Shown in pieces: positions 1,085-33,369 of a stretch of 33,369 nt of DNA. The stretch lies in the NCBI GenBank assembly GCA_965645245.1, contig OZ287070.1, forward strand, positions 3,100,001 to 3,133,369. Direction: 5' to 3'. Position 1 is the first letter of the stretch; each line of letters opens with the position of its first letter. The stretch is from Massalongia carnosa (taxonomy: Eukaryota). Under the pieces are notes generated by a model that was not told the origin of the DNA, searched no databases, and worked only from the letters and a program-made list of their open reading frames with translations. Made by a program: the position numbers and the translations under genes.

Positions 1085-2140
1085 TCAGGACCTAGTGACT
1101 GGATTGTGAGGTTCCGTGGGTAATGTTTGAAGGCGTTTTGAGGCGTTAAGAAGGTAAGTGGGGTGGGTTTGTATGTAAAGCTTGTATGCGTCTGACTTCC
1201 ATCTTCCTAGCATCTGAATCTCGTCTTCGGTGAGTCCTGCCCGTCGCGCTGTTGTTGCCGCACCTCTTCTGAACGAGTGGCCAGAGAAATTTCCTATATA
1301 GCCCAAGTTCCTTAAGGTGGATTTCATCGCTGTTGTAATGTAGTCTCGAGTGAAGGACTGACCGTTTTTAAAGAGTGGTGCGGCCGGAGAACTTGGGAAT
1401 CGCCTATATAAATTTGTAAGAGAAGCTAGTGCACAAGCAACATCGTTGGTAGCCGCAATTGTCAGTGTTATGCCTCGGCGAAAGGGATCGGTTTTGGAGA
1501 CTGGTAGAGAGAGCTGTAGGTGATCTGCTTCGAACCTAATAGATTTTCTGGTGAGGTGCCATTGATCAAAGCTTGGGTCTAGTACATCTTGCGTTGTGTA
1601 AGTAAATTCTCCGGCTCGTAAGAAGCCTGCAAACGCTAAGCAGTACGCCGCATGTAAATTTGCGCCTTTCTCTTTCGTTTGATCAAGACGACTTAGCAAT
1701 TTGATTAAGATCTCTCTAGTAATTGGTAACCTTTCACGTTTCTCGGCTTCACCGTTCTTTCGCTTTATGCCAGTAAGGATGCGATCTAACACCGGGTGAT
1801 GAAATACGTCGAGATTACCGAGGCCCATATCTATCTGGCATGATCTTATGCCCGTCAAGTAGCTCTTAATAGTTTTTGGTTGCAGGCGTCGTTCACCCAA
1901 CGCTGCGATCCACGAAGACAGCGTCCGGATGTTGGCTGGAAATGGTGGCGCGTTGAGGTTTACCCTACAGTAAAGAACGTATCCCTTTCTTGCCGTTGTG
2001 TATAAAGATCTTGTCTTAGTGGCCAGGCCCCACCAGAGGTATCGTGCTGCGATTTCGTCTAGAGGTACCTCACTGTACCAAGATGGGGGTGGATCGCGTC
2101 CTATATTGCTGAGGGTAGAGCCTGAAACTGAGGGATTTTG
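1085..2140 (-). CDS. Tyrosine recombinase of the YR retrotransposon; frame is open from 2140 with no ATG near its start
   Basis: AFAGFLRAGE (R), SKTDP (K), GHSFRRGAAT (HxxR), GRWKSDAYKLY (W, Y). The frame extends stop-free upstream of the called TTG at 1900 (...YLWWGLATKTRSLY...). Confidence 0.92.
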   Translation of the reverse strand, partial: QNPSVSGSTLSNIGRDPPPSWYSEVPLDEIAARYLWWGLATKTRSLYTTARKGYVLYCRVNLNAPPFPANIRTLSSWIAALGERRLQPKTIKSYLTGIRSCQIDMGLGNLDVFHHPVLDRILTGIKRKNGEAEKRERLPITREILIKLLSRLDQTKEKGANLHAAYCLAFAGFLRAGEFTYTTQDVLDPSFDQWHLTRKSIRFEADHLQLSLPVSKTDPFRRGITLTIAATNDVACALASLTNLYRRFPSSPAAPLFKNGQSFTRDYITTAMKSTLRNLGYIGNFSGHSFRRGAATTARRAGLTEDEIQMLGRWKSDAYKLYIQTHPTYLLNASKRLQTLPTEPHNPVTRS

Positions 2141-3717
2141 TCAGCCAGTTTCTTCAAAAGTCCTCTAGACAAGAGATCAGCAATATAATTTTCTTTGGAT
2201 GATATCCATCGCGCTTCTATCTGGATATCATGTAATGCAGCTAGCATTGTAATTGCCCGCAGGGCATGCATTGCTTGGCCTCGTATAGAGGTTTTATTCA
2301 CTCCTTTCGTGACAGCGTAGCTATCACAATAGAGGATTAAATGACTACCCTTGCATATAGGTAGCCACTTTTTCATAGCTTGAAGAATTGCTGTCATTTC
2401 TTTGACGTTGATATGCTTTGCCCTAAGGCGCGTAGTAAAGCGTGTGCTAAAAGCCTGCCGGGCTGCTTGTATATTATGCAAATTTTGATCCTCGCTGAGG
2501 ATAAAGCCGCCCATACCATATGAGCCGGACGCATCTGTCCATATTCTCATAGTATGTCTAGTACGGTTGAGCAGATGTATGCCATTCCATTTAGGTAGGA
2601 AATGATGCCACCATAGAAGATCAGCCCTCATGTCCTTGTTAAGATGGATTAGTTTAGAGGTTACGCTTGCCGTAGCATTGAAAAGACGGCGTAGAAAGGC
2701 TCTTCCTGGTTTTACCACTCTGGCTGCAAAGCATAAGAATCCTAGAAGAGAGTCGAGTTCCTTCCTGGGTATGGCTTTTTTATTCAAAGCTGCCGATACT
2801 AGGGTCTTTGCTTTTAGTAACTTTTCGGAAGGCAAGCGTGCTTCCATGAGCGCGGTATCGATTTCAATGCCGAGGAAATCGCAAGTCGTTCCAGTTCTGT
2901 TCTTTTCGAGCTTGATTTTCATGCCAAGATCTTTACAAATGTTGTGGAAAACTTGATCAAACTTTTCAGCATCTGGTCCGGTGCTGACTATTATTAAAAA
3001 ATCATCCAAGTAATGAATAGCGTCTTTCCAACCACAGTTGTACAATATCCAGTTGATACCCTTCGCGAACAGATCAAAAAGGAACGGCGACGTTCTCAGC
3101 CCAAAGGGTAAGTATTTATCCATCCAAAAGGAATCCTGCCACTTGAAACCTAGTAACCACCAATCGCTTTTTGCTACTGGTATGTGGCGAAAAGCGTCCG
3201 CAAAGTCTCTTTTAATAAGAATACACCCTGGCCCGCGTTGCTCAATCAACCTAATGGCTTCGTCGAAGCTGGTATATTCCAGGGAGCCCCAGTCTTCCGG
3301 TATGTGGTCGTTGACTGAGCTACTCTCCGGATACGATAGATGATGGATTCGCCGCCAACCACCGTTAGCCTTTGGTACAAGGCCTAATGGGGAACATATA
3401 AAGCAAGAAGGAATGTTGTTGACTTTCTCCAACCGATTACTAGCTATTTGTTCTTCGAGGTCATTGGTAAGAACTTCCGGTGCCTCATTTGCAGAGGCAA
3501 GATTATCGCTAATAATGAGTTGATGTGGTCCTGTATAATCAACTTTGGCACCGTAGGTGATGATATCGATAATTGTTTGTGTGTAAGTGCGATCCGGGTG
3601 ATTGGCCAAATGTTTCTCCCAGCCTTCTTTCTTCAATGGGCCCGGTGGGATCTTTGTTAGATTGTCCGTCAAGGTGTATGGAAAGGACTCCGCGATGGAT
3701 AAGAATGGGGCGGTTAG
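2101..3717 (-). CDS. pol: Reverse transcriptase + RNase H of the YR retrotransposon
   Basis: KRDFADAFRHIP, LPFGLRTSP, HYLDDF, FLGIEID; RNase H motifs WTDASG, HINVKEM, YCDS, ADLLSR. The frame is open from immediately after the gag stop. Confidence 0.95.
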   Translation of the reverse strand, partial: LTAPFLSIAESFPYTLTDNLTKIPPGPLKKEGWEKHLANHPDRTYTQTIIDIITYGAKVDYTGPHQLIISDNLASANEAPEVLTNDLEEQIASNRLEKVNNIPSCFICSPLGLVPKANGGWRRIHHLSYPESSSVNDHIPEDWGSLEYTSFDEAIRLIEQRGPGCILIKRDFADAFRHIPVAKSDWWLLGFKWQDSFWMDKYLPFGLRTSPFLFDLFAKGINWILYNCGWKDAIHYLDDFLIIVSTGPDAEKFDQVFHNICKDLGMKIKLEKNRTGTTCDFLGIEIDTALMEARLPSEKLLKAKTLVSAALNKKAIPRKELDSLLGFLCFAARVVKPGRAFLRRLFNATASVTSKLIHLNKDMRADLLWWHHFLPKWNGIHLLNRTRHTMRIWTDASGSYGMGGFILSEDQNLHNIQAARQAFSTRFTTRLRAKHINVKEMTAILQAMKKWLPICKGSHLILYCDSYAVTKGVNKTSIRGQAMHALRAITMLAALHDIQIEARWISSKENYIADLLSRGLLKKLADKIPQFQALPSAI

Positions 3718-4872
3718 TCATTGCCTTGATGGGAGAGGCATCGAATTTGGGTTAGAGGGTTGATTTTTTCCATTTGTACAGTCCATCGCCCGATGTTGCT
3801 TTCCACATTTCTCACACACATGTTGGAATCTACAATATACGGGACAGTCTTTGCCATAGTTGTATTTCTTACAGATAATCTTTTCGCCTGAGGTTTTGAA
3901 AGCCGTAGAATTATCGTCCGGTTTTGCAAAGTAAGCGGACGGTTTCCGCACAAGATGCCTTTCCAAGGAATGGTCCATTTCTTTCCATCCATCCGGGTTG
4001 TCAATCCCGCGAAAGGCTCGAGATTTGTGGAAATTCAAATGAAAGATGCGAACCGAGTCCCAGGTGTAGAAGGCGTATAATGATAGAAGATGGTCCTGAT
4101 AAGCCATGAAGGCTCTCATCAGGTTTATCTGGAGACCGGGGTGTGCAAAGTGTAGTAGTATCATCCAATATACCCCGAGACATCGTATCAAATGAACTAT
4201 CCCTTTGATATCTTTTAAGGAGCCATCTTCTTCTCTCGTGGCGATTTCCAGACCTTCTCCGAGTTTGACGTATCTAGAGTTGGTTTGAACTCCGTCGATG
4301 TCGGTACATAGCTTGGTAATGTTGATTGGGTCAAACGTATTCTCGGAGATTTGCTTTATCCATATGGGCTTGATAGTGGGATATTCGTTCATAAGAGAAA
4401 CAAAACGAGGATCCATACCTTCTGTATACAATGAGTTTGGTCGATGCGGTCGAAATGATGTCGGAAATAATAGGGAAGGCTGTTGAGCTGAGGCTACTGG
4501 CCCAGGGACCACGTCTCGGGCACGTGCTTGTTGGGTTTCGATATCCCGCCTAAGACTTACTCTTTCTCTTTCCTCGGCTTCCCTGCGGGACATTTCGCGT
4601 TGTGCTCTAAGTTCAATAATGTCATCAGGGGTGCGAGAACGGGTTTCCGGTATAACAGGCCCTTGTGAGGAGGAATTAAACGCTGAAGATGGAAGAGGAG
4701 AAGGTTGAGGATGGCTTTGAAGGGTTGCCGTGCTGTCTTGTGAGTCGGGTACTTCGACGTCTGGGTTGGAGTTGGCTAGATTTGCCCTAGCTCTAGTTCT
4801 AGTACGGGCTAGAGTGCTGCCTTGTGTGCGGGAGGTAGGCTTGGTGATTCTGTTGGAGATGCGGGTGGCCAT
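3718..4872 (-). CDS. gag: Gag-like ORF1 with C-terminal CCCH/CCHC zinc fingers
   Basis: First ATG at 4872 (MATRISNR); C-terminal CKKYNYGKDCPVYCRFQHVCEKCGKQHRAMDC; lies upstream of RT. Confidence 0.85.
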   Translation of the reverse strand: MATRISNRITKPTSRTQGSTLARTRTRARANLANSNPDVEVPDSQDSTATLQSHPQPSPLPSSAFNSSSQGPVIPETRSRTPDDIIELRAQREMSRREAEERERVSLRRDIETQQARARDVVPGPVASAQQPSLLFPTSFRPHRPNSLYTEGMDPRFVSLMNEYPTIKPIWIKQISENTFDPINITKLCTDIDGVQTNSRYVKLGEGLEIATREEDGSLKDIKGIVHLIRCLGVYWMILLHFAHPGLQINLMRAFMAYQDHLLSLYAFYTWDSVRIFHLNFHKSRAFRGIDNPDGWKEMDHSLERHLVRKPSAYFAKPDDNSTAFKTSGEKIICKKYNYGKDCPVYCRFQHVCEKCGKQHRAMDCTNGKNQPSNPNSMPLPSRQ

Positions 4873-5033
4873 TTTTGGAGGAGAGGGATTTGAATAGAGT
4901 AAATTTAAGTGTAGTGGTTGTATAAATTTGAATTGGGTGAAAAGAAAACGTTGCAAACAGTGCTATCAAAATGCTATGCTTTTTGATTGTCTTGAGATGT
5001 GAGATGATGAGGGATACCGTCTGGGACCTCCTC

Positions 5034-5296: not shown

Positions 5297-5878
5297 GATA
5301 TCGACACTCATCTTCGAGACGAAATGCTGATGGCCCAAGCTTCGTACGAAGCAACTGCAAATGCTAACCGACGTCCCTGCCCCCGCTATTTCGTTGGCGA
5401 TATGGTGTGGCTAAGCACCAGAAATATCCAAACCGCTCGCCCCACAGTCAAGCTGGATGACCGAAATATCGGCCCCTACCGCGTCAGCAAGGTGTTTTCC
5501 AACCCCTTGATCGTACAGCTGGAGCTTCCCGATACCGTCAAAATCCATCCCGTCTTTCACGTCAATCTGTTGCAGCATAATGCCAATGACCCCCTCCCCG
5601 GGCAGAGACCGGAGCCTAGAGACCCCGTCATCGCCGAAGATGGCCAACGAGAATGGTATGTCAATAGGGTATTGAATTCCAAGCTCGACCGACGTTTTCA
5701 ACCCCCGCTTCTGAAATACCTAGTGGATTGGGAAGGGCATCCTTCCACCTGGGAGCCTTTCAACTATCTCATCAATTGTCAGCAAGTCATAGACGAATAC
5801 CACCAAGCCTATCCCAATGCGGCCGGCCCTCATCTAAACCCCTGTCAAATTCCCCGTTGCCAATGCCACGAGGCATAG
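5297..5878 (+). pseudogene. pol: Gypsy integrase C-terminus with GPY/F region and chromodomain
   Basis: GPYRVSKV...HPVFHVNLL; EWYVNRVLNS...KYLVDWEGHPSTWEP; in frame with 340-900. Confidence 0.93.
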
Positions 5879-6408: not shown

Positions 6409-6965
6409 AATGCCAGGAATGCCCTCATCTACGAAAATTTCCATTTCCAGTGCAAAAGCTTATAGTTGATCAATGGAAGCTAGCTGCTAAAAGCCTAGCA
6501 GACGGTGAAGCACCGGCAGGTGAAATGCCAGATGAGCTGACATGTCCTGTAGATTGTTTATTTTATCGACAATATCAACTTCCATGCAGGCATCTATGGC
6601 ATTATCACATCGTTTTCGAGACGTTTCAGGAGTCCGATTGGTTGGCTTGGGCCGAGATGTTTGAAAATAGCGGCTTTGAAGTGTATGAAACGTCGGCTAG
6701 ACTGAATATTGAACGTCACGAAGATATCGAGGAACCTGATCGTCATATGCTGCAGATGAGGGAGGTTATAGACACTATAAAAGAAAAATTCTACGAAGTT
6801 ATGGAGCACACCCCTGTTTGGACAGCTGAGGAAAGAATTCCTCAAATAGAGAGATGGCTTGGCTGGCTGGAGAAATTGACTGGCCCAATAAGAAGACAGG
6901 GGGTGGAGGAGGCCTTGCAAGAGCTGAAAGGTGAGGCGGCGACGGGGGGGTTTTGGAAGCGGTGA
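6409..6965 (+). pseudogene. C-terminal part of a Mutator-like (MULE) transposase with SWIM zinc finger, cut off by the Gypsy insertion
   Basis: CPVDCLFYRQYQLPCRH SWIM-like motif; the frame is open right up to the LTR end; followed by subterminal tandem repeats. Confidence 0.7.
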
Positions 6966-13974: not shown

Positions 13975-15012
13975 TGCCAGGGTTGCTAGCACCCGCACCA
14001 TGTGCTCATGGGATTTCGGGACCTGGTTTGAACTGAATTCGGTGTTGATACTGGGACGAATGTTCTCCAGTGCTCTTTGACTGGGGACCCTTATTCGTCC
14101 AGATCTTCGAGGTTCGATGGGCTGGCGAGGAATGTCCTCCACTTCATCGGAGTCACTCTCCTCCCCATTCTCCTCTTCTCGGCCTCCCCCCGAAGCATTT
14201 ACTCCTATTGGATGTAGCATTATCCGTGGTGCTGGTGGGGCCGCTTCATTTTGAAATTCCGAACTTCTCGATAATTCAGAGCTCGGAGTTTTCGGAGACA
14301 AAGAAGATGGCGGATTATGACTTTTGTTTTCATCAATAAAATCATCTGGGTCATCAAACAAAGCATCATCGTCTCCCTCCCATGGAATGTCGGCTAGGTC
14401 CTATGCCTTTTTGTCCTTGGAATCATATATATTGCCTTCGTCGACGGTGATATCGCGACAAACTTGGACTTTTCCAGTGAGAGGATCGTAAATTCGATAC
14501 TGATTGTTTCCTTTATACCCAACAAATATCCCCCGCCAGGACTGATCGTTCAGCTTCTTGCGCTTCTCTTTTGGGATATTTACCCACGTCCTTGCCCCGA
14601 CCGTTCTCATATGGCCGAGGAAGGGTTTCGCATTGTTCATGCGTTCATATGGAGTGACCTTCTCGACCCCAGGACTTCTATTCTTGATGTACCCGGCCAT
14701 CTTCAGGACCTCCCCCCAAAGGGACTTTGGGACTTTTTTAGCCTTCATCATGGACCGAGTGGGGACCATGAGGGTATAATTTTGCCTTTCGGCCTTCCCA
14801 TTCTGTTCTGGCACATTTGGTGCCCGGGCCTCCCACTGGATGGCTTCACTCTTTAGGAATTCCTGAAAGTCACCACTGGTGTACTCCCCTCCTCCATCAG
14901 CTCGGAGTATCATTATTTTCTTTCCCGATTGATTTTCTATCCATGTCTTGAACTGCTTAAAACATTCGAAGGTTTGACCCTTTGTTTTCAGCAGGTAGAT
15001 CCACACTACCCC
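13975..15012 (-). pseudogene. Ty1/copia integrase core and downstream linker fragment
   Basis: WIYLLKTK...ILRADGGGEYTS...PEQNGKAER...LWGE...GIFVGY...YRIYDP; internal TAG at 14401; no LTRs; boundaries approximate. Confidence 0.9.
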
Positions 15013-15213
15013 TAACTGTAGAAATCGCCCGTTGTGCGGCGTAACACGAAACGCGTAAGGCGTGATTGGCTGATTTCCCCCCGCTTCGGCGTCGGCACGC
15101 ACCGCTGCACCGTAAAACGTGCACCATAACACGAGAATCCCCGTCGCTGGCAACGCGACCTCTAATCGCCCCACGAGGGAGCTGGGAAGCGGCTAGGGCA
15201 TAGGGAGAGGATC

Positions 15214-18200
15214 ATGAGCGCCCGTTTGGTCTATCTGCCGGAATGGCGGGTGCTGGTGTGCGAAGAGTGCGGCTTTGGCCTCCGTCCCGGTCGCGGCGTT
15301 TGGGTTCGGCACCTGAGGCAAGCACCGCATTGCTTGAAGGGCCCCGAGCTCCGGGCCCAGGTCGAGCTGTTCGAGAGATACGACCTCTGCGCGCCGGAGC
15401 AGGAGCTCGCGCAGCTGCCGGCCCATGCGATCCCCGGATTACGGCTCCTCGACGGTTTCCAGTGCTTGACCTGCGCGGCTGGTCTTACCCAAAGCCTCCA
15501 AGCTATCGAACGGCACGTGTCAAAAGCCCACCAGCTCAAGCCTGCATGGCATAAGAAGAACCCCCTCTGGCGGTCGTGCAAACTCCAGACTGTCTTTGCC
15601 GAGAATCGCTTAGTTCGGTATTTTGTGGTAGAGGATGAGGGAAGAGCAGAGGACCAGGGAGCTCCGGATACAGGAGCGCGGATAGCTTGGGTTCAGGGGA
15701 CGAAGACTTCTTTCAGCTGCTCGACCAGGACGCCGCTGTTGCAGAGGAGGATGCTAAGGCAGAGGCCAACATCGTTCATGGCTTCGATGGTCACCGATCC
15801 GCTGTGGTGCCGTGGCTGAGACGGACGGGCATCGAGGAGCACACGCGGGGCTTAAAGAAGGACGAGATGCACGCCTCTTTTGCAGTACTGAAGGCTGCCG
15901 AGAGCGAGCCCGAGCCGTTCCTGATGCTAGAGGTGATGGACGAGATCTTTCTAGAGGCGCACAGCTGGTGCTTCGATGGCCCCAACTGCATGCTGACCTG
16001 GCCACGGCAGCTGGCATTGAGCCGCTTCCATACTGCCGCTGCCCCAGGGCAGAAGACGCGCGTTCGACCCGAAGAAGGAGCCTAATACGCTCAAGACCAA
16101 CTTCGGCTACTGGAAGCAGTTCTTGACCTACAGCTACCGGGTGGCCTACTGGGGCGACCACTTCACCGCGGCCGACAGCGACCAGCGGACCCCCGAGAGC
16201 CATATCCAGCTCACGGGTGCTCAGGAGAATGCGTGGGAAGTGGCTTTCCAAAATGCCGTCGAGCAAGACGGGCCTGCGCTGAGAAAGGCCATGTCGGTGC
16301 TCTCAATAGCGCTGATCTGCCACGAATTTGGAGGCAATCGGTACAGCTCCTCACTGCTCAGCTTCTGCGCCATGCTCAGCGTCAAGCCACACACCAAGAC
16401 TTGGAAGGAGCCGGGCAATTACAATAGCTGCTTGTCCGGCGTAATCTGGATTGTGCAGCTAATCATCTTCCACGCCAGCGCCTGTCTGGAGAAGGCGGAG
16501 CTAGGGGATACACTCGAGCGCATTGAGCAGTATTGCGGGCAGTTCTTGAAGCAGGACACCGAGACTCCTATGGGCGAGATCCTCGGCTGGCGCTTGCTGC
16601 TGTTTACTGTCTCGAAGGCGGTTGTTGGGCCGCACCAAGCGCAGTGGGATGTGGACGAGAAGGTCCTGACCTACCGAGACGTTGATTTGCATATGGATCA
16701 CGTGCCGCGGCTCTTACTCTCCGAGTTCCAGCAAGCCCAGCACCTACTCTACGACGAGCTGATATTCGGGACCCAGAACCTTCCGCGGATGCGTGCTTGG
16801 GCATTAAAGGACAACTTAGACGCCGATGCCTTTGGCTAGTTCTTGGCCAGCACCGGGTGAACTTTGAGCTGGTAAAGCCACTGGCGAGGTCTTTGCTAAC
16901 CGTTATCCAAGACTCGAAGCCGTTGCGGGACTCGTTCCTGGATGCCAACGCGGATGGCGCTAAGGTCTGGCGGGAGAAAGCGATTGAACGGTATGAGGCC
17001 GTGGCTAACGAGTTCCTGATAAGGCTCTTAGTCTTGATCCACATGGGCTCTGGCCAGCCTCTGCGCGAGAGTGAACTGTTCTCCGTCACCTGGCGTAACA
17101 CCCAGCGGCGGCGAAGCGTCTACCTCAAGCACGGGCTAGTCATGCTGCACACCACATACCACAAAGGTCAGCAGCAGACGGGCAAGTTTAAGGATAATAT
17201 CCGGTTCTTGACTGCACCTATTGGAGACCTCTTGCTGGACTACTTGGTAGTTGTAGTCCCGCTCCTCCAGGTCTTCCTCCGCCGGTCTGCCCCGCATGCC
17301 CTTATCTCTCCGTACTTGTGGTGGCAAGACGGCAAGGTCTGGGCGGAAAACCGGCTCACGCGGTGCATGGAGCAGGCGTGTAGTCGGGCCAGCGTCCCCC
17401 GGCTACACATTGCCAACTGGCGGCAGATGACGGTCAATATCGTCAAAACTAAGTTTGCAGCTGACGTTGGGTGCTTTGAGGTTGACGACGGGGCTAACGA
17501 CGAGGATGCAGAAGAGATCGAGGCGGACATTCGGATTATGACCAAGCAGCGGAGCCATAGTACGCGGACTGTCAACCGGGCATATGCAAACCAGCACAAT
17601 GCTAACTTTGGGAACGTGTGGGATGGCCTTATCCGCCGGAATCTGCGTGCTTCAACTCTGTGGAAGGACTTGTGGGGGCTTGACCAGCTGCTTGGACCTG
17701 CTGGGAAGAGGAAGCGGGATGGTGAAGACATTGGTGGTCCGCAAATGCTCAAGAAGATCGCCATGGGGGTCTACCGGCCACGGAAGAAGTGGTCAGCTGC
17801 GGCTCTGCTGAACAGTGCAAGAAAGCTGTACCTAGATAACACGCTGAAGTGGAAGTCAGCAGCGCAGGAGCGGGCTATGACTACTATCATGTCATGGACT
17901 GAGCAGGTGGTAGTTATCATGGCTACTGGCGAAGGGAAGAGCCTGCTGTTCATGCTGCCTTGCATCCTCCCGGACGCTGGGGTGACGATCTTGGTCTTGC
18001 CACTCGTATCTTTACGAGGAGATCTCCTCCGCCGAGTTGGAGAATTGGGGATCGATTACTTGGTGTGATCGCCTAGCGAGCAAAGAGATGCGCCTTTGCT
18101 GTTTGTCACAGTTAAAGCAACATGTACGGAACAGTTTCGGACTTACGCCCACAAGCTCGCGGCTACGCAAGACCTCGGGCGCATTATATTGGACGAGGCT

Positions 18201-19532
18201 CACTTGACTATCACAGCGTCCGACTATCGCGAGGCTATGGTTGACCTCGCCCTGATCCGCAACGTCCGTACGCAGTTTGTTTACTTAACAGCTACTCTAC
18301 CACCGACAATACAAGCTAGATTTGAAGAGCAGAACAACTTGGTGAACCCCAAGGTGATTCGAGCATCGACGAACCGGCGAAATCTGTTCTATATGGTACA
18401 GCGGGCCACTGGGCGAGGAAGTCTGCTCGAAGAGGGCACGCGGAGGGCAAGGGAGGCGTGGGAGAATAGCCAGCTCTTGGATCGGGCTCGAGATAAGATC
18501 ATCTTATACGTTCGGACAAAGGAAGATGCTGCTACGCTGGCTGAGCTACTCTGCTGCTCCCAGTACACAGCTGATATAGGCACGGCTGAGCAGAAGGAGG
18601 AGCTGCTGAGAATGTGGCCTGCCTCCTCGGACCAGCCGTACATGGTGGCCACGTCTGCATTAAGCGCTGGCTTCGACTATGCCCACGTTCGCTTAGTTGT
18701 GCATGTCAAGGAGCCGTCGTCTTTAGTCGACTTCGCCCCTGAGTCTGGTCGGGCCGGGCGGGATAGAAAGGAGGCGTACTCGCTAGTCCTTCTCTCACCT
18801 ACATGGAAGCCGCAAGCCGCTGAGAGAACCGCGGTCGAGAGAAGAGCGCTGCACCGCTACCTCCTCGGGCAGGACTGCCGCCGGGCATGCTTGAGTGAGC
18901 ACCTCGACTCGGAGCCGTATTGGCGACAGTGTCAGGCTGACGAGGACGTTGTATGCGACGTATGCAGCGCCGGCCCAGCTCTCGCTCCGTCTTCCGCTCC
19001 GTCTCCCGAGCCGGCTCTTCAGTATACTGGCAGTGCAGCTATTCAGGAGAAGCGACGTCGAGCCGAGCTCGAGTTAAGCGGGTACCAGGAGGACCTGCTC
19101 GCAGTTCAAGGCACGCGTCTGCTCTGCCGGGCATCCGACGATGCCTGAGACCACGTCTTCCCTACGTGCTGGCGTCGGTTCGAGTTCTTTGAGGCTCGCA
19201 ATCGTGTTAAAAAAGCGAAGCAAGGAGGGCAGTGGATTACTCCGTACCACGCATGCTACTGGTGCTATAATCCCAAGGCGGTCTGTCCGCGAGCGGACCC
19301 AAAGAGTAACTGCCAGAGCTGCCTCTACGCGGACATTGTCATGCCGCTCTGCTATGGCATCTTCCACGGAGGCGGGGCCGAGCAGTGGCTAGAAGAGCGG
19401 TTTCAGCGGACGTTTACAGACGTCGATGACTTTCTTAAGTGGTGTGGTCAGGCAGCTAGCTTCGGCGGGGGTAAGGCAATCTGGGGAGTCTGTGTAGCTG
19501 CGGCTGCCTTAATTCAATTTAAGTTATACTAG
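15214..19532 (+). pseudogene. TLH: Telomere-linked RecQ-like helicase (TLH family), ~1440 codons: N-terminal Zn fingers, YR-like domain, SF2 helicase, Cys-rich C-terminus
   Basis: CEEC..HLRQAPH and CLTC..HVSKAH; Walker A ATGEGKS, LDEAH, TAT, ESGRAGRD, CRR..C..CDVC. Three frameshifts (~15680, ~16060, ~16845) and TGG-derived stops at 16837, 18066 and 19146. Confidence 0.88.
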
Positions 19533-20007
19533 GCTAGGTGTAAGGTAAAACGGGAGTTTAGACTAGGGTTGAGTTAATTATAAATTTAAAGTATAAAGTA
19601 TCGAATAGAGAAGGATTAATTATGAATAGGCAAATAGGCCTTAGGGTCGATGCCTACTCCCCAGATTTCCTTCGCTTTTGCCTTTGCCTCAACTAATATA
19701 CGGGCGTGAGTAAGCCGAGGCACAGCCTACGACCCCCCCCTCGGCCGCTGACCCAATCCCTGGCGAGGTGCCCACGCCAGCCAGACCTAGGGTATTACAT
19801 GATAGCCTAGATCCTACAAACACTGATTCTCCTCTATCCGAGCGGACGGCTCTACAGCTAGCCAAGCAGGTCCAGAAATTTTCGGGCTGTACACACGAGG
19901 AACATGCGGAGGCAGAAGGCAAGCACCAGACACATCACCGACGCCCCGATGTACATTCAGAGTACTTCTCTATTCCGGGGATCACCTCGATACTTAGGGG
20001 GAGCTAT

Positions 20008-26267: not shown

Positions 26268-29200
26268 ATGCCTTCTACGGAGCCATTGAAAAAACCAGGT
26301 GGTAGGCCTCGAAAGTACTCTACTGCTGATGAAGCTGCAGCGGCAAAGAGACGGCAGAATCGAGGCTATTACCACAATCCATCGCGCCCAGTTGGTCTTG
26401 CAGGTCCCGTCGACTTTGTTGCCTACGAGCCTCTACCTACATCCGATATTTCTAGCTACACCCTGCCTGCCATTGGTCTGCGAACCAGCCCAGACATACC
26501 AATCCCCCCGGATCGCGATATAGTGGAAGACTGTGAGGAAGAGCTTGAACCCGAAGCATACCTAACCCAGGACAACCCCCCTCGAACTGCAACTCCAAAT
26601 ACCCTACACGAGGAGCCCGAAATCATTCGACAAGTTGAGAAAATACGCACAGAGGAGGTGACAAATATTGAAGACGCAGACTATGATGCGGAGATCACGG
26701 CACGCTTGGAGGAGTCGGCAGCCCATCTCGAGGCAGCAGGAGTGCTCCAGGCACTACGAATTGGGCAAAAAGAGAGGCAGGAGAGCAGCAAGGCCGGGTC
26801 ACTGTATTCTGACTACGCTGCCCAGCAGTTTAGTGATGTCGAATCATCCGCATCTAGACACAACAGCACACCAATTCATAGTCCACCGAATACAGATATA
26901 CAACAGGGCAGTTTACCGCATACTGCAGATACACACCGCAGTCACCGCAGGACTTCTAAGGCTCAGTCAAGTAGTACCAGTAGTAGACGTGGGACTTCGT
27001 TCCCAACGCAGAGAAACACGCTATTATCGTGGATGAAGCCTTTGACAGGTGTCGATTGTAACCCTACTTCGCCCACTTCACGCCCATCTCCAACCATTGC
27101 TATATCTACACCTATGCCCTCGGATCTTCATCAACCTGCTGGATCCGTCGAAGCACCACCACCCGTGCCTTCAAGAGAACCCCCCCTAGGCCAAAGTCCA
27201 CAACCAGCAGTATAGCAGGCACCGCGTAGCGCGCAGAGTGGCCACATCGCAAATCCGAGCCCTGGTCAACTAGAGAGCACATCCTCTAAGCTGGCCAAGC
27301 AGCTACGTAAATTCCGGTGCTGCACTCATGAGCAGCATACCGAAGCCGATCGCCAGCATGAAGAACACCACCGACGCCGAGGTGTGCACTCAGAGTGCTC
27401 ATCCATACCGGATATTACTTCCATTGTTAAAGGGTTACACAATGGGGGCACTCCGCTTCCCGATGTCCTCAAAAGCCCCCGACTGATGAGAGCCACCGAT
27501 ATCCAGTGCGTCGGCTACAAGGCGGCATTCGAAGGCACTACTATTGCTCGCCTGGACGAAGCCAATCCCCATAACGATGGACTACCTCCGAGTCTTTGCC
27601 TGTCCAAGAAACACGCTACAAGTCGGAAGAATCGTCAACCAAGGGTCAGTTTTGACATCGACAGCACCTGTTGTTTCCCCCAGAGTCTCGGGTTTGCCCG
27701 TCGCGGGATAGAGTGGTTCCCCAAGGCCCATCCCGTCCTCAATCTCACGGGCGACATACACTTTGGGTTGAATGTCCCTGGTTCCACGATCATGGACAAT
27801 CCATCCCTAAGATATGTCCCGCTGCATAAGATATCCCACTACTGCTTTGGGCGCGTTGTTGGCATGAGCGATCTTCTCATGTTTATCTTCTCTCCCGCCC
27901 TGCACAAAGAAAGCGATCATGAGCATACCTCGTATCTCAGTAAGCGCGATGAGCAGCTCTGGTTGGATGGCATCCTCCTTCCCTGTATCACCAAGGTTGT
28001 TAAGTCTTCCAACATACTGCTGAACTATCCGGCCTCTTCTCGCATAGCCGACCTTGCATGCACGGCGATATCTGCAGAGAGCCTCAAACGGAAGGAGTCT
28101 GCCAACCAGCAGTTAGTTGCCCATACGATCCAGCCGCGGTACCTCGATGAGCTCTGGACCTTGGTTGGTAGGACCATAGATGAGAATCCTGGGTTTCATC
28201 GGTTCCAAGGCGCAACACTGTTCACGCATTCCAAGAACACCAAGCTGGCAACTAATGACTCTACTGGTTTGGTCGAAGCATACAATGGCTGGAAGAGGCA
28301 GTGGCTGGATGCAGCAGATCCGGAATTCTACAACCCAGATCGCACCTTTGTGAACATTGCAAAGCAGATTACCTCACAGGACAGCGCGCTTCCTTATGAT
28401 CAGATACCAGAGAACCACGAAGCCGAGGTGTTCTTGTGGAAGAAGTGCTGCCTAGATGAGTATTGCAGGACGAGGATGGTCCTCAACCCGGATGGAAGCA
28501 AGGCTAAAGGGAACCCGAAGCGTACTGTATACTCCTCGGCTACCATGCGAGATACGATGAGCCAGACGCTGTTTGCTGCACCGCAGGGTGACGAGACCAA
28601 GGATGGGCTGATATATTCTCAGTTCTATATGCTCGCCAAGAATCTATTCGACTCTTCGAAAGTGTACGTCTTTAATAACGACTCAGTGGAGAACCTAGCC
28701 CTGGACCCTGGATATGTGCGTTCTCTGCAACAGGAGGGCGGAGGTATCACGTTCTCTAGGGGTGTGTGTGAGTTTGCCTATCTCCACAGCAAGAAGCGGG
28801 CTCATGCAAACCTCATAGACAGTCGCTGGAAGTCTTATGGAGTGAGGGAAGAACATCGGATATCCCTAACCATGATGGAGGAGATATATGAACAGTGGTG
28901 CCAGTGGGACCTCTACGACGCAGACGACATAGCAGACACCCCGTCTCCACTGGCATATTACATTGTACCTACAATCGACTTTGTATGCCTCCTCCACGCC
29001 CAGATCAACAAATACTGCTTCCTGTTCAAGCATGTTCTTGCCCACACAGCTAAGACGTACTCGCTGCCTGAGACCATCATCATGGTTGGAGCGCTGCGAG
29101 GACTCCGCTTCTGCTACGGTGGAAATATGCTGGCGCGAGAGTCCCTACTGTTTAAGGACCGGTGGAGGGTTGTCCAAGGAGGGAAGACCATCGTCAAGGA

Positions 29201-30548
29201 AGGACTCGGGATGAAGGAGAGTATAGAGCTATCCGGGTTAGGGTGGTTCAAGCCTAAGATCAACTGGGAGACGTGGCGACTAGCAGCACCACATGGTGAG
29301 AACATCCTGGTTGGGAACATGCTTATGCACGAGGAGTATAAGCGAAGGTGGAGAGTAGTAAAGGATCTCCGCGACGTCTTCATTCGTTTCAACCAAGCGG
29401 CGTCATGGTATGAGAGGTACAATGTGCAGGAGAACCCTCGATTGCTTAAGTCCTGGCTGGAGTACCTTCACGTTCTTAACCTCGAGCAGTTTGACGCAGA
29501 TATCTGGAAGGCCATGCACAAGATCAACAAGCAGACTATGGAGCTAAGACGCGAAGGTGCAAAGCCGCCTGCAGAGTTTAGGTTCTGCTACCGTGACATG
29601 AAGAGGATGTTCCTAGTCGACGCAGTTACTGGACAGCCAGGTTCACCGCACATGGACACCGGGAACAAGATGCGGTTCGACAAGGCTATAGGTCTCCTCA
29701 ACTTCCTATTCCTATCCGATGAGGAAGAGCGGCGTGGCTGGGGTAACAAGCCGTACCGCGTGATCCTGAACAAGACCTTCGTGATGCTAGAACAGCGTCT
29801 TGGGTACGACCTGGCGGATCGATGGCTTAATGACTTCTTACACCTCATCCGGCTGACGCACTGGATCCTTCCATACCCGTCTAATGGGGGTCTCATTACG
29901 TCGACCAAGACCAGTCAGAGCCGGGGACTTAGGCGGCAGATGATGTGGTTCTCGATGGTCTACGCAGACCCAGCGCACGCCGAAGTCCCGTTCAAGCACC
30001 CTCCTTCAACGCTGTATAGTCTTTTGAGCCGTGCCCGGGCACAAACATTTGGACGTTCCCAGGAAGAGCCGCGATGGGGCACGGCACAGCTCCTAGCAGC
30101 ATTCAAGGTGGAGGGGGTCCTGGCCAGTGGGCAGGAGGATTTCTGGGTTGCCGGAAAGATGAGCATAGGATATGGGGGACTCGAGCCTCTCTGGGAGCGT
30201 GGGCATCCACCGAGGCTGAAGATGCTCGAGGAGATCCGGCAGAAGAGCCTAGATGAGCTTGAAGAGCTGATGGCTGGACAGAGTGTCGAGCCGGCAGCTA
30301 ATGGCGCGGCGGCAGACGACGAGCCAGAAATTGACGACGTAATAGATCATCAAGCCCAGGGTGGCGAGGCTGGTAGGGGGGCCGATGCACCAGCTCCGCG
30401 TGCAGCTGCCATTGCGGCTGTTGCTGCTGGCCGTAGCGTGTTTGCCGCGTTTGCCAGGAGTTCTAATGCTAGCCAGAGTGGTGACAGTCTAGCTGCTGGG
30501 AGTAACAGTGGCAGTAGCGTGTTTGTCCCATCTAACCCATATGCTTAA
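26268..30548 (+). pseudogene. Family X copy B2: full-length ~1426-aa uncharacterised protein with one in-frame TAG
   Basis: The 315-aa and 1054-aa ORFs share a frame. The only interruption is TAG at 27213-27215, where A1 and B1 have CAG. N-terminal GGRPRKY AT-hook-like motif. Confidence 0.9.
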
Positions 30549-32212: not shown

Positions 32213-33220
32213 TGTAATGGGCTACCAGACCAGTAAGCTAATCACGAGCGACACTGATCCCGAAAGGGGAAATGCTCAGCGTGAGAGGTGGAAGATAGCT
32301 ACTACGTGCTAGTCTCCGAGAGTATATGTGATCCAAAGAACTAATGGATTTGGAAGTGCTTAGACCAAGAGATCTCGTCCGAGACCCAAACGTAGGTAGT
32401 TCATAGAATAAAGACTAATTGCTAACGAATAATACCGGATTCGTTCTGGTATTTGTCCTACTTACCCCAAGCCTATAGCCTTGGGAGCCTTGGAACCTTA
32501 GGAGCCTTGCAACGCACATCTGACCTTATCGCCTTACATCCAACCATCCCTCAGGATCCATCTACGAACTCGGCGTTCGCTGGATCATCTAGTCAGCCTC
32601 GAGCAGCCTTCTAGACCTTCCCTTGCAAGGTAGAACACTTCTACCTGCGGCTAGATCCCTCATTACATTGCTAGCCTGCCTCTAAACATAAAGTCTAGAC
32701 GCCGAGGCTATGTAGCTTCATTTCGCCGTCACCACTACCAACGTAGCGATGGAAGGTTACCTCCGACTGAATCTCTATCTACACTGCGGATCTGCCTCTA
32801 GACACAAGGTCTAGACCACAAGGTCATGTAGGTTCATTCAGCCGATATCACTACCAACGTAGCAATAAAGGTGGAAGCTGAAGTTTACACCGGGGAGGCC
32901 GAGCTCAAGCTGCGTCCAGCTAGCCTTGCCTCCTGCTACAACTCTTGATCCAATCAAGAGATCGAGTAGCTCCGAGTAGGCCAGTAGATTCCATATAGAG
33001 TTCACGGCTTCTCCACAGGAGTTCGCCTTACTCCATGGCAATCTACCACCACGGCCTCGACAGGTGTTTGATCTGTAAGCAGTCTAGAACGTAGTAACAA
33101 CTAATTCGGAGTTGTGTGGCAAGGTGGCGTCGTGTCAACCTCGACGGCTGTGCGACTAAGTACTACGGCCTGACTCATGCTAGTTAATCCCGCAACCGCC
33201 GTAGGCGATCACGTATCCCT
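32213..33220 (-). mobile_element. Inverted second copy of the 1012-bp LTR, lacking its last 20 bp
   Basis: Reverse complement of 23348-24339 with substitutions and indels; intact terminus TGTAATGG at 32213. Confidence 0.92.
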
Positions 33221-33369
33221 TAGGGTTAGGGTTAGGGTTAGGGTTAGGGTTAGGGTTAGGGTTAGGGTTAGGGTTAGGGTTAGGGTTAGGGTTAGGGTTA
33301 GGGTTAGGGTTAGGGTTAGGGTTAGGGTTAGGGTTAGGGTTAGGGTTAGGGTTAGGGTTAGGGTTAGGG
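33220..33369 (+). repeat. Telomere, (TTAGGG)25
   Basis: Perfect TTAGGG array to the end of the window, G-rich strand running outward. Confidence 0.99.

Follow-up and report, generated by a model that had tools for sequence, protein, structure and literature searches.

Telomere-linked helicase (TLH) genes lie at most chromosome ends in many fungi and have been discussed for more than 20 years without a mechanism, and the copy described here raises the question of what the conserved domain preceding its helicase might do. It is found in a 33,369-nucleotide stretch of the Massalongia carnosa assembly GCA_965645245.1 (contig OZ287070.1, positions 3,100,001 to 3,133,369), which is referred to below as the window and represents a fungal-type chromosome end. 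This 'TLH domain' is the best-conserved family-specific part of TLH proteins, and the literature, as far as its accessible parts go, treats it as a family-specific motif with no assigned function. From a predicted structure and the conservation of candidate active-site residues, we propose that the domain (~260 residues) is probably a divergent member of the superfamily of tyrosine recombinases (YRs) and type IB topoisomerases (topo IB), with a complete-looking active site, and that it forms part of a three-part protein that would act on branched or paired DNA at chromosome ends. If this is true, the 'helicase at telomeres' becomes a helicase fused to a DNA breaking-and-rejoining enzyme, and the TLH genes of chromosome ends may cut and rejoin DNA besides unwinding it.

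The gene and its domains in the window are as follows.

15214..19532, forward strand: TLH gene, delimited by tblastn of the intact homologue P0001 (1439 aa) in four collinear pieces of 67–92% identity
15226..15534, forward strand: N-terminal OrsD-type C2H2 zinc-finger domain (Pfam PF12013, E 7.6e-13, residues 5–107 of open reading frame (ORF) 15214–15819)
16899..17696, forward strand: predicted YR-like catalytic domain, the 'TLH domain' of the literature (AlphaFold2 model mb4a38d210858 and structure searches)
17859..18764, forward strand: superfamily 2 (SF2) helicase core, DEAD and Helicase_C (PF00270, E 9.4e-7 and 1.9e-3; PF00271, E 2.3e-8)
17928..17942, forward strand: Walker A motif (GEGKS) within the helicase core

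Pfam also reports a weak RecQ_Zn_bind match in this gene, and no match in the ~770 residues between OrsD and DEAD. An N-terminal C2H2 finger, a TLH domain before the helicase and a RecQ-like SF2 helicase are thus all present, in agreement with the published description, the available part of which gives TLH proteins two C2H2 motifs, a TLH domain of ~250 aa before the helicase, RecQ-like motifs and a subtelomeric position (10.1101/2024.02.27.582403). By position and size the YR-like domain is the TLH domain of the literature. One homologue search returned 158 proteins, most of about 1430–1500 aa with OrsD, DEAD and Helicase_C, including one (P0107) whose source label is 'helicase tlh1'. DEAD directly follows the YR-like domain in 30 of 33 long representatives and OrsD stands at the N-terminus in 19 of them, so that the zinc finger–YR–RecQ helicase fusion suggested by an earlier reading of the DNA letters (below, the sequence-only reading) holds as an architecture across the family, its YR-like part being predicted. 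The TLH domain itself was reportedly defined by Rehmeyer et al. in 2009.

Predicted fold and candidate catalytic residues

A second, template-free AlphaFold2 run on residues 35–300, using a diverse alignment of 79 sequences, gave the model mb4a38d210858 with a predicted local distance difference test score (pLDDT) of 87.1 and a predicted template modelling score of 0.83. VIA-align comparison of this model with 48,161 chains placed members of the YR/topo-IB superfamily at all ranks from 1 to 29 (Z 12.0–5.1), followed at rank 30 by an unrelated structure at Z 3.5. The best match was archaeal XerA (4a8e_A, Z 12.0, root-mean-square deviation (rmsd) 3.2 over 151 residues), and the 29 also include XerH, Cre, XerD, phage and transposon integrases, IntI, Flp, topo IB and the YR-derived proteins Ndc10 and QRICH1. 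With Foldseek, the first 37 listed rows were all tyrosine recombinases (best E 6.9e-4, probability 1.00). The first AlphaFold2 model, built from 49 close homologues, had a pLDDT of 67.8, and its top matches were already Xer/Cre proteins (Foldseek E 2e-3, VIA-align Z 7.9). A protein-language-model look-up listed Phage_integrase, NDC10_II, Integrase_2 and ResT-TelK_cat clusters first (scores 0.82–0.85), which is a lead only. The predicted model therefore has the catalytic-domain fold of the superfamily, which bears out the YR-like catalytic domain claimed by the sequence-only reading, and on this modelling we regard it as very probable that the TLH domain belongs to the superfamily.

The residues that would make up the active site are listed below, R90, E93, K123, R209, H254 and Y263 being numbered along ORF 16797–18068 (forward strand).

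17064..17075, forward strand: box-I-like R-E-S-E with candidate Arg I (R90, 17064) and the Glu of RxxE (E93, 17073), from conservation
17163..17165, forward strand: candidate catalytic Lys (K123) in TTYH-K, from conservation and a hairpin turn in the model
17421..17423, forward strand: candidate Arg II (R209) in IANW-R-QM, just after a conserved Trp, from conservation and a helix in the model
17556..17585, forward strand: H-S-T-R-T-V-N-R-A-Y with candidate His III (H254, 17556) and candidate Tyr nucleophile (Y263, 17583), nine residues apart

The candidate Arg I thus lies in box I with a Glu three residues on, as in the superfamily, and the candidate Lys falls where the beta2–beta3 hairpin is expected, in the turn between strands 80–87 and 98–103 of the model. 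R209 lies in helix 171–185; beyond a variable acidic insert comes a short helix with H254 on one side and Y263 on the other. The text of box I, G-x-x-x-R-x-S-E-L, and that of box II, H-S-x-x-T-x-x-x-x-Y, are taken by us to fit the Xer/Cre pattern. In the order R-K-R-H-Y over 180 aa these letters are by themselves no more than chance would give; it is conservation and fold that make the pattern non-random. R90, E93, K123, R209 and H254 are invariant in 49/49 aligned homologues, down to 46% identity, and Y263 is found in 47/49, the remaining two rows being truncated before it. An HMMER scan of 1.84 billion cluster representatives yielded 1402 proteins at E <=1e-3 and 496 at E <=1e-10; in a distant set made up of the best 146 new representatives of 50%-identity clusters, and with only those rows counted that have a residue in the column concerned, R90 is kept in 104/110, E93 in 104/110, K123 in 116/125, R209 in 114/118, H254 in 99/108 and Y263 in 100/107. 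Each of the five catalytic-type positions, including the H-x8-Y pattern, is accordingly retained in 92–97% of distant representatives, and deviant rows show varied substitutions scattered over different proteins, with no common replacement. The six residues are among the ten best-conserved of the 277 columns of a 126-sequence domain alignment, and among only 13 nearly invariant columns of an alignment (A5) of 79 sequences, many of them at 25–35% identity. The R at 17064, K at 17163, R at 17421, H at 17556 and Y at 17583 picked out by the sequence-only reading are each where it had placed them, all before Walker A, and the conservation of these five across TLH homologues that it had put forward as a check is seen in close and distant relatives alike.

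A number of results weigh against the assignment. The structural evidence is prediction throughout, and the stretch with H254 and Y263 is weakly modelled (pLDDT 48–63). Pfam gives no YR family in the window ORFs of this gene at E <=0.1, at E <=10 no Phage_integrase (PF00589) or DUF3435 match either in the window domain or in another 26 short members, and no YR match in any of the 33 long representatives; as a control, the window's own DIRS-type YR does match Phage_integrase (E 2.2e-4). HMMER searches of PDB sequences with the single domain sequence (phmmer) or with a profile of 27 short members found no match at E <=10. Aligned by hhalign with a 30-sequence profile of DIRS-type YRs (relatives of the window retroelement), the TLH-domain profile reached a probability of 0.1%, and a cleaner 126-sequence profile 0.5% (P 0.11). 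In the hhalign path, which is of low confidence, R90 and K123 fall on the Arg and Lys of the DIRS YRs and H254-x-x-R257 on their HxxR, leaving no Tyr. Finally, the His of HxxR is missing: three residues before R209 the 49 homologues have A, S or N, and never a conserved His, so that the bracketed H in the (H)xxR of the sequence-only reading is not there. Topo IB likewise has no His at this position, and the absence therefore concerns the subfamily of recombinase rather than membership in the superfamily.

H254-x-x-R257 was considered as an HxxR in its own right and set aside, since R257 is present in only 34/49 and 48/105 rows and this register has no conserved Tyr. In the language-model look-up, residues 330–575 of P0001 (the middle region) retrieved only a nameless fungal cluster (0.82), and none of ten distant representatives carries a name in a cluster look-up.

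If the domain had no recombinase relationship at all, the letters would be a chance pattern and the structural matches a common helical arrangement. All the sequence-based tests came out negative, as this would predict, and according to the VIA-align note a Z below 8 can reflect a common arrangement, a level that the first model, at only Z 7.9, did not pass. The better model, however, reaches Z 12.0, with 29 consecutive top rows from a single superfamily before the drop to Z 3.5; the first 37 rows of Foldseek, an independent search, are YRs without exception; the fold is a mixed alpha/beta one with its hairpin correctly placed; and the conserved columns coincide with the catalytic positions. 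We consider this explanation very improbable.

Recombinase, topoisomerase or binding module

A YR-derived fold need not be catalytic. Ndc10 and the Crypton-derived genes of animals have lost catalytic residues, and the TLH domain might similarly serve now as a DNA- or protein-binding module only, as in Ndc10 or QRICH1/ZMYM. Such domesticated folds are among the structural matches (Ndc10 Z 6.0–5.2, QRICH1 Z 5.3), no YR profile recognises the TLH-domain sequence and the second catalytic His (His II) is missing. Against this, the presence of the five catalytic-type positions and the RxxE Glu among the ten best-conserved columns would be unexpected after a loss of catalysis, and the rows that deviate have no shared replacement. 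We therefore hold a purely binding role to be distinctly unlikely. That the TLH domain is catalytically active seems to us more likely than not, since it is the positions of catalytic type that it has conserved best.

What kind of enzyme it would be is suggested in part by the comparison with characterised members of the superfamily. Xer/Cre proteins (XerA, XerH, XerD and Cre) are the best structural matches (Z 12.0–9.2, rmsd 2.9–5.1 over 134–151 residues) and share with the TLH domain an Arg I in an R-x-S-E-L box, a Lys on a beta-hairpin, an Arg II in a helix and, as a sequence pattern, a His and Tyr nine apart. The TLH domain differs from them in having no detectable sequence similarity, in the replacement of the HxxR His by A, S or N, in the acidic insert between Arg II and His, and in being fused, within a eukaryotic, telomere-linked protein of ~1440 aa, to a zinc finger and an SF2 helicase. 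Type IB topoisomerases have the superfamily fold (Z 7.0–5.1) and an R-K-R-H-Y pentad that likewise omits the HxxR His; they are weaker structural matches than Xer/Cre, and the TLH domain has none of their N-terminal or linker elements. The pentad without His II and the long Arg–His spacing thus recall topo IB, and the predicted fold is closer to Xer/Cre. Telomere resolvases (TelK, TelA and ResT) are YR-superfamily enzymes that act at chromosome ends, and a ResT-TelK_cat cluster is a language-model neighbour (0.82); unlike the case with these enzymes, the chromosome of the window ends in TTAGGG repeats and not in a hairpin, and resolvase structures match poorly (TelA at rank 49 with Z 3.1 for the second model, TelK with E 0.58 for the first). 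Neither the chromosome end nor the predicted domain therefore places the gene with the telomere resolvases.

The topo-IB resemblance is the basis of a further explanation, in which the domain would be a topo-IB-like swivel or a resolvase that works for the host alongside the helicase in maintaining telomeres (by rescuing eroded ends through recombination, for example), as a single-chain analogue of RecQ–Top3 that carries out no site-specific recombination and does not mobilise itself. A conserved R-K-R-H-Y without the HxxR His is the topo-IB pentad, and the R-to-H spacing of 45 is nearer to that of topo IB (~42) than to that of Xer/Cre (~23). However, this long spacing stems from the variable acidic insert, and Xer/Cre-type recombinases are clearly better matches (Z 12.0–9.2) than topo IB (Z 7.0 at most). 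We judge this alternative unlikely; two features of the 5' end that it would leave unexplained, and the copy number that it would explain, are considered with the unit below.

We infer catalysis, substrate and any role in mobility as follows. The YR-like domain lies between a C2H2 zinc finger and an SF2/RecQ-like helicase, and the TLH protein would therefore be a three-part machine. The zinc finger would target DNA, the YR-like domain would cleave and rejoin it through a 3'-phosphotyrosine link, and the helicase would open or branch-migrate branched or paired DNA at chromosome ends. That the fusion partner is a RecQ-like helicase suggests a task on branched DNA, whether strand exchange, junction resolution or the relief of torsion during unwinding, and strand exchange or resolution on helicase-opened DNA would be the most likely mode of action. 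This activity may serve, at least in part, to move or copy the unit between chromosome ends.

A fusion of a YR and a helicase would be a new enzyme architecture. The assignment made here opens the TLH domain to direct tests by point mutants and biochemistry, and gives a concrete way into the question of whether the helicase families of subtelomeres are selfish elements, serve the host by rescuing telomeres, or combine the two roles. It is new relative to the literature covered: a full-text search found no paper that connects a telomere-linked helicase with a tyrosine recombinase, subscription journals and domain databases being outside its scope and an earlier notice being possible, and a survey of transposable elements that mentions both Cryptons and telomeric RecQ genes handles them separately in the part available (PMC4522978).

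The window copy is broken by three frameshifts (at about 15652, 16056 and 16842) and by two in-frame TGA codons (18066 and 19146), both of which fall at Trp positions. Three public runs from two studies (X2, X3 and X4), in which about half of the words sampled from the stretch occur, have contigs with +C after 15652, with +T after 16842 and, except in X4, which has no cover there, with +CG after 16056. These insertions restore a single frame from the ATG through the recombinase-like domain, and since the public contigs carry exactly the frame-restoring insertions, the frameshifts are either assembly errors or strain differences. ORFs of 1429–1455 aa are intact in five of seven metagenome loci, and a root metatranscriptome contains a 3.3-kb contig, 94% alike, that spans 16334–19550 (DNA carry-over is possible). 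Median dN/dS (the ratio of non-synonymous to synonymous substitution rates) is 0.12 for the YR-like domain, equal to that of the helicase core, so that purifying selection acts on both with the same strength.

The TLH unit, its ends and its copies

The sequence-only reading described a compact ~4.6-kb unit among fragments of transposable elements, and this description stands: the unit spans 15006 to about 19630 (~4.6 kb), with a copia-type integrase fragment upstream and repeats of high contig depth downstream. The features that delimit it are listed here.

14401..15012, reverse strand: copia-type retrotransposon integrase fragment, adjoining the TLH 5' terminus (Pfam SH3_retrovirus E 2e-21, rve E 4e-5)
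15006..15025, forward strand: conserved 5' terminal motif, CTACC[TC][CT][TC]AG[CA]A[TA]T in relatives, from a nine-locus alignment; the window copy has a 3-nt insertion
15026..15213, forward strand: 5' non-coding region with three TAAMACG (15042, 15113 and 15127) around the conserved block GGCACGCACCGCT (15094–15106)
19533..19628, forward strand: short 3' tail common only to the closest relatives, where blastn homology to metagenome loci L001 and L002 stops (at 19628)
33220..33369, forward strand: (TTAGGG)n telomere repeats of the chromosome end (23 overlapping matches, 0 being expected)

In a multiple alignment the sequence shared by TLH loci starts at 15006 with CTACCCCTAACTGTAGAAAT. The terminal motif is present in 8/9 loci and at least three subfamilies, about 190–210 nt before the ATG, and the DNA upstream of it is unrelated. 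Comparing the window by blastn with its closest metagenome relatives, L001 and L002 (90–92%), recovers only 15213–19628, the more diverged 5' region being seen by multiple alignment. What lies upstream differs between loci: the copia integrase fragment in the window; in L003 a TLH paralogue truncated at its 3' end, which recurs in L001 with 328 nt more; and other DNA in L005, L008, L013, L014 and L017. Contigs that come from the multi-copy copia side in two public runs diverge right after 15012, so that the window junction lies within the 7-nt overlap CTACCCC.

Within the 5' region, three of the 11 TAAMACG sites of the window (both strands) are found in 92 nt. Each subfamily has its own repeated 7–14-mer in the same layout, with one copy near the terminus and at least two after the conserved block (GGGCACGGACCAGT in most): TAAATCC in L001, L003 and L005, CACCGCAATAAGTG in L013 and L004, TTGACCATAATGACC in L014 and TAAMACG in the window. 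A kept layout with changing words is what would be expected of binding sites that co-evolve with the DNA-binding protein of an element; a conserved autoregulated promoter would look similar. The sharp terminus with its unrelated flanks and the subfamily-specific repeats are the two features that a topo-IB-like host enzyme would leave unexplained.

Two palindromes are also seen in L001, L003 and L005. One, GGATTT-GCGGCGT-AAATCC (4617–4635 of L001), lies ~20 nt inside the 5' terminus and the second, of the type CCCTGA-N-TCAGGG, ~40 nt deeper; either could be a place where a protein binds or a crossover occurs.

Telomere repeats are seen in three loci (the window, L002 and L014), and in each of them the gene reads toward the telomere; the distance from its stop codon to the repeats is 13.7 kb in the window, 2.0 kb in L002 and 2.9 kb in L014, a subtelomeric location like that of the TLH family. 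M. oryzae TLH1, S. pombe tlh1/2, U. maydis UTASa and F. oxysporum TLH are alike in architecture and subtelomeric position, as judged from the part of the published description available to us. In F. oxysporum that part reports TLH-containing regions at 79–92% of chromosome ends, single or arrayed and with telomere repeats on both sides (10.1101/2024.02.27.582403). TLH genes are also reported from most chromosome ends of some fungi and discussed as telomere-maintenance factors, a point in favour of a swivel or resolvase that serves the host. Two diverged TLH genes stand in tandem, in the same orientation, in four loci.

L001: 2–4378 and 4791–9107
L003: 2897–7279 and 7442–11626
L008: 1120–5418 and 6352–9864
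L018: 374–3829 and 5297–9201

In L003 the 5' terminus of the second unit adjoins the 3'-truncated first TLH gene, which is 328 nt longer in L001. The locus L026 (a whole contig of 5349 nt) is a near-perfect inverted duplication of the TLH 5' half, 95% self-complementary, and represents either an assembly fold-back or a real palindromic rearrangement.

Because of its sharp, conserved 5' terminus, varied upstream partners, constant orientation and element-specific repeats, a self-propagating unit directed to chromosome ends is a serious possibility, if one that we put somewhat below an even chance. There are several findings on the other side. No 3' terminus is found across subfamilies, as 3' flanks are not alignable and the closest relatives alone share ~100 nt after the stop; a search for terminal repeats, inverted or direct, gave only short pairs at chance level around the unit; no target-site duplication is seen at the unit; and the junction overlaps are unequal, 7 nt in the window and 2 nt in L003. 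Upstream, L001 and L003 share 3.9 kb of flank that consists of a further TLH paralogue. In run X2 the contigs have a depth of about 2,900–3,400 over the TLH unit compared to 3,800–4,200 over low-copy neighbours, and summed depth over the copia fragment (about ten times the TLH unit) and two downstream stretches is ten to eighty times higher than over the unit; contig depth is not copy number, and the unit does not look amplified in the window organism. The low copy number in the public runs examined is also what a topo-IB-like enzyme of host telomere maintenance would give. Among the contig joints listed, none skips or circularises 15006–19630, the joints lying elsewhere or in single low-support contigs; contigs cannot show absence, and this has no bearing on circles. 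The small-share metagenome runs X5–X19 and X21 do not enter into these read-based results.

The proposal of the sequence-only reading that the gene belongs to its own mobile element is thus only partly supported, by the 5' side, where the terminus is sharp, the upstream DNA unrelated and the repeats specific to the element, and not by the 3' terminus, target duplication, flanks (shared by L001 and L003) or depth. Of the sharp ends and target sites that it had hoped to see by aligning copies, a sharp 5' end was recovered.

Known eukaryotic elements with a YR offer partial parallels. Cryptons are DNA transposons that encode a YR and no helicase, have no terminal inverted repeats and in fungi carry a GCR1_C domain. 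The TLH unit would resemble them as a eukaryotic unit whose sole DNA-breakage enzyme is of YR type, and no terminal inverted repeats were found around it. It differs in encoding a helicase, in its lack of a GCR1_C match, in the absence of visible target-site repeats and in its telomere linkage, and of the defined ends of a Crypton it has the 5' one. The 'captain' recombinases of Starships contain DUF3435, and their YR gene lies at the extreme 5' end of the unit, reading inward. The TLH gene is similarly a fungal gene, YR-type by prediction, at the extreme 5' end and reading inward, with the terminus shortly before the start codon; unlike captains it has no DUF3435 match, a unit of ~4.6 kb free of cargo, a helicase fusion and a subtelomeric position.

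More speculatively, TLH units may be an unrecognised class of eukaryotic mobile element, a telomere-homing recombinase–helicase element. The zinc finger and YR-like domain would recognise the conserved 5' terminal region with the repeats specific to each subfamily, the helicase would open the DNA, and the unit would be cut at its fixed 5' end and joined to eroded or broken ends, always reading toward the new telomere. TLH families, and perhaps those of Y', would then descend from such elements and would not be host telomere genes. We regard this extended form of the proposal as doubtful.

Telomere-like remnants near the unit (CCCTAA in the 5' motif, AATAGG-CAAATAGG-CCTTAGGG at 19636–19660 and degenerate ATAGG/TTAGGG near 19640–19660) were considered and set aside as too short to be told from chance. 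The stretch 19636–19660 lies just past the end of homology to relatives and may be a decayed telomere-repeat remnant. In L019, three TAGGGGA-type repeats and an A-rich run of ~20 nt directly follow the TLH stop (6480–6561), after which the contig ends. GC content is 0.56–0.61 in the TLH unit and about 0.46–0.50 in its flanks.

Other features of the chromosome end

Besides the copia fragment, integrase fragments of long-terminal-repeat retrotransposons lie at 340–987 (rve) and 5324–5878 (SH3_Tf2-1 and chromodomain). A DIRS/Ngaro-type retroelement occupies 1085–4956 on the reverse strand. Its ORF 1085–1900 carries the weak Phage_integrase match (PF00589) that served as a control above and has 1691 relatives at E <=1e-5, its ORF 2101–3672 encodes reverse transcriptase and RNase H, and its ORF 3718–4956 has no Pfam match. 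Nearer to the telomere, two forward-strand ORFs, an uninterrupted one of 1054 aa (27384–30548) and one of 315 aa (26268–27215), have no Pfam match; lying 2.7 kb before the telomere repeats, they could represent another chromosome-end gene family.

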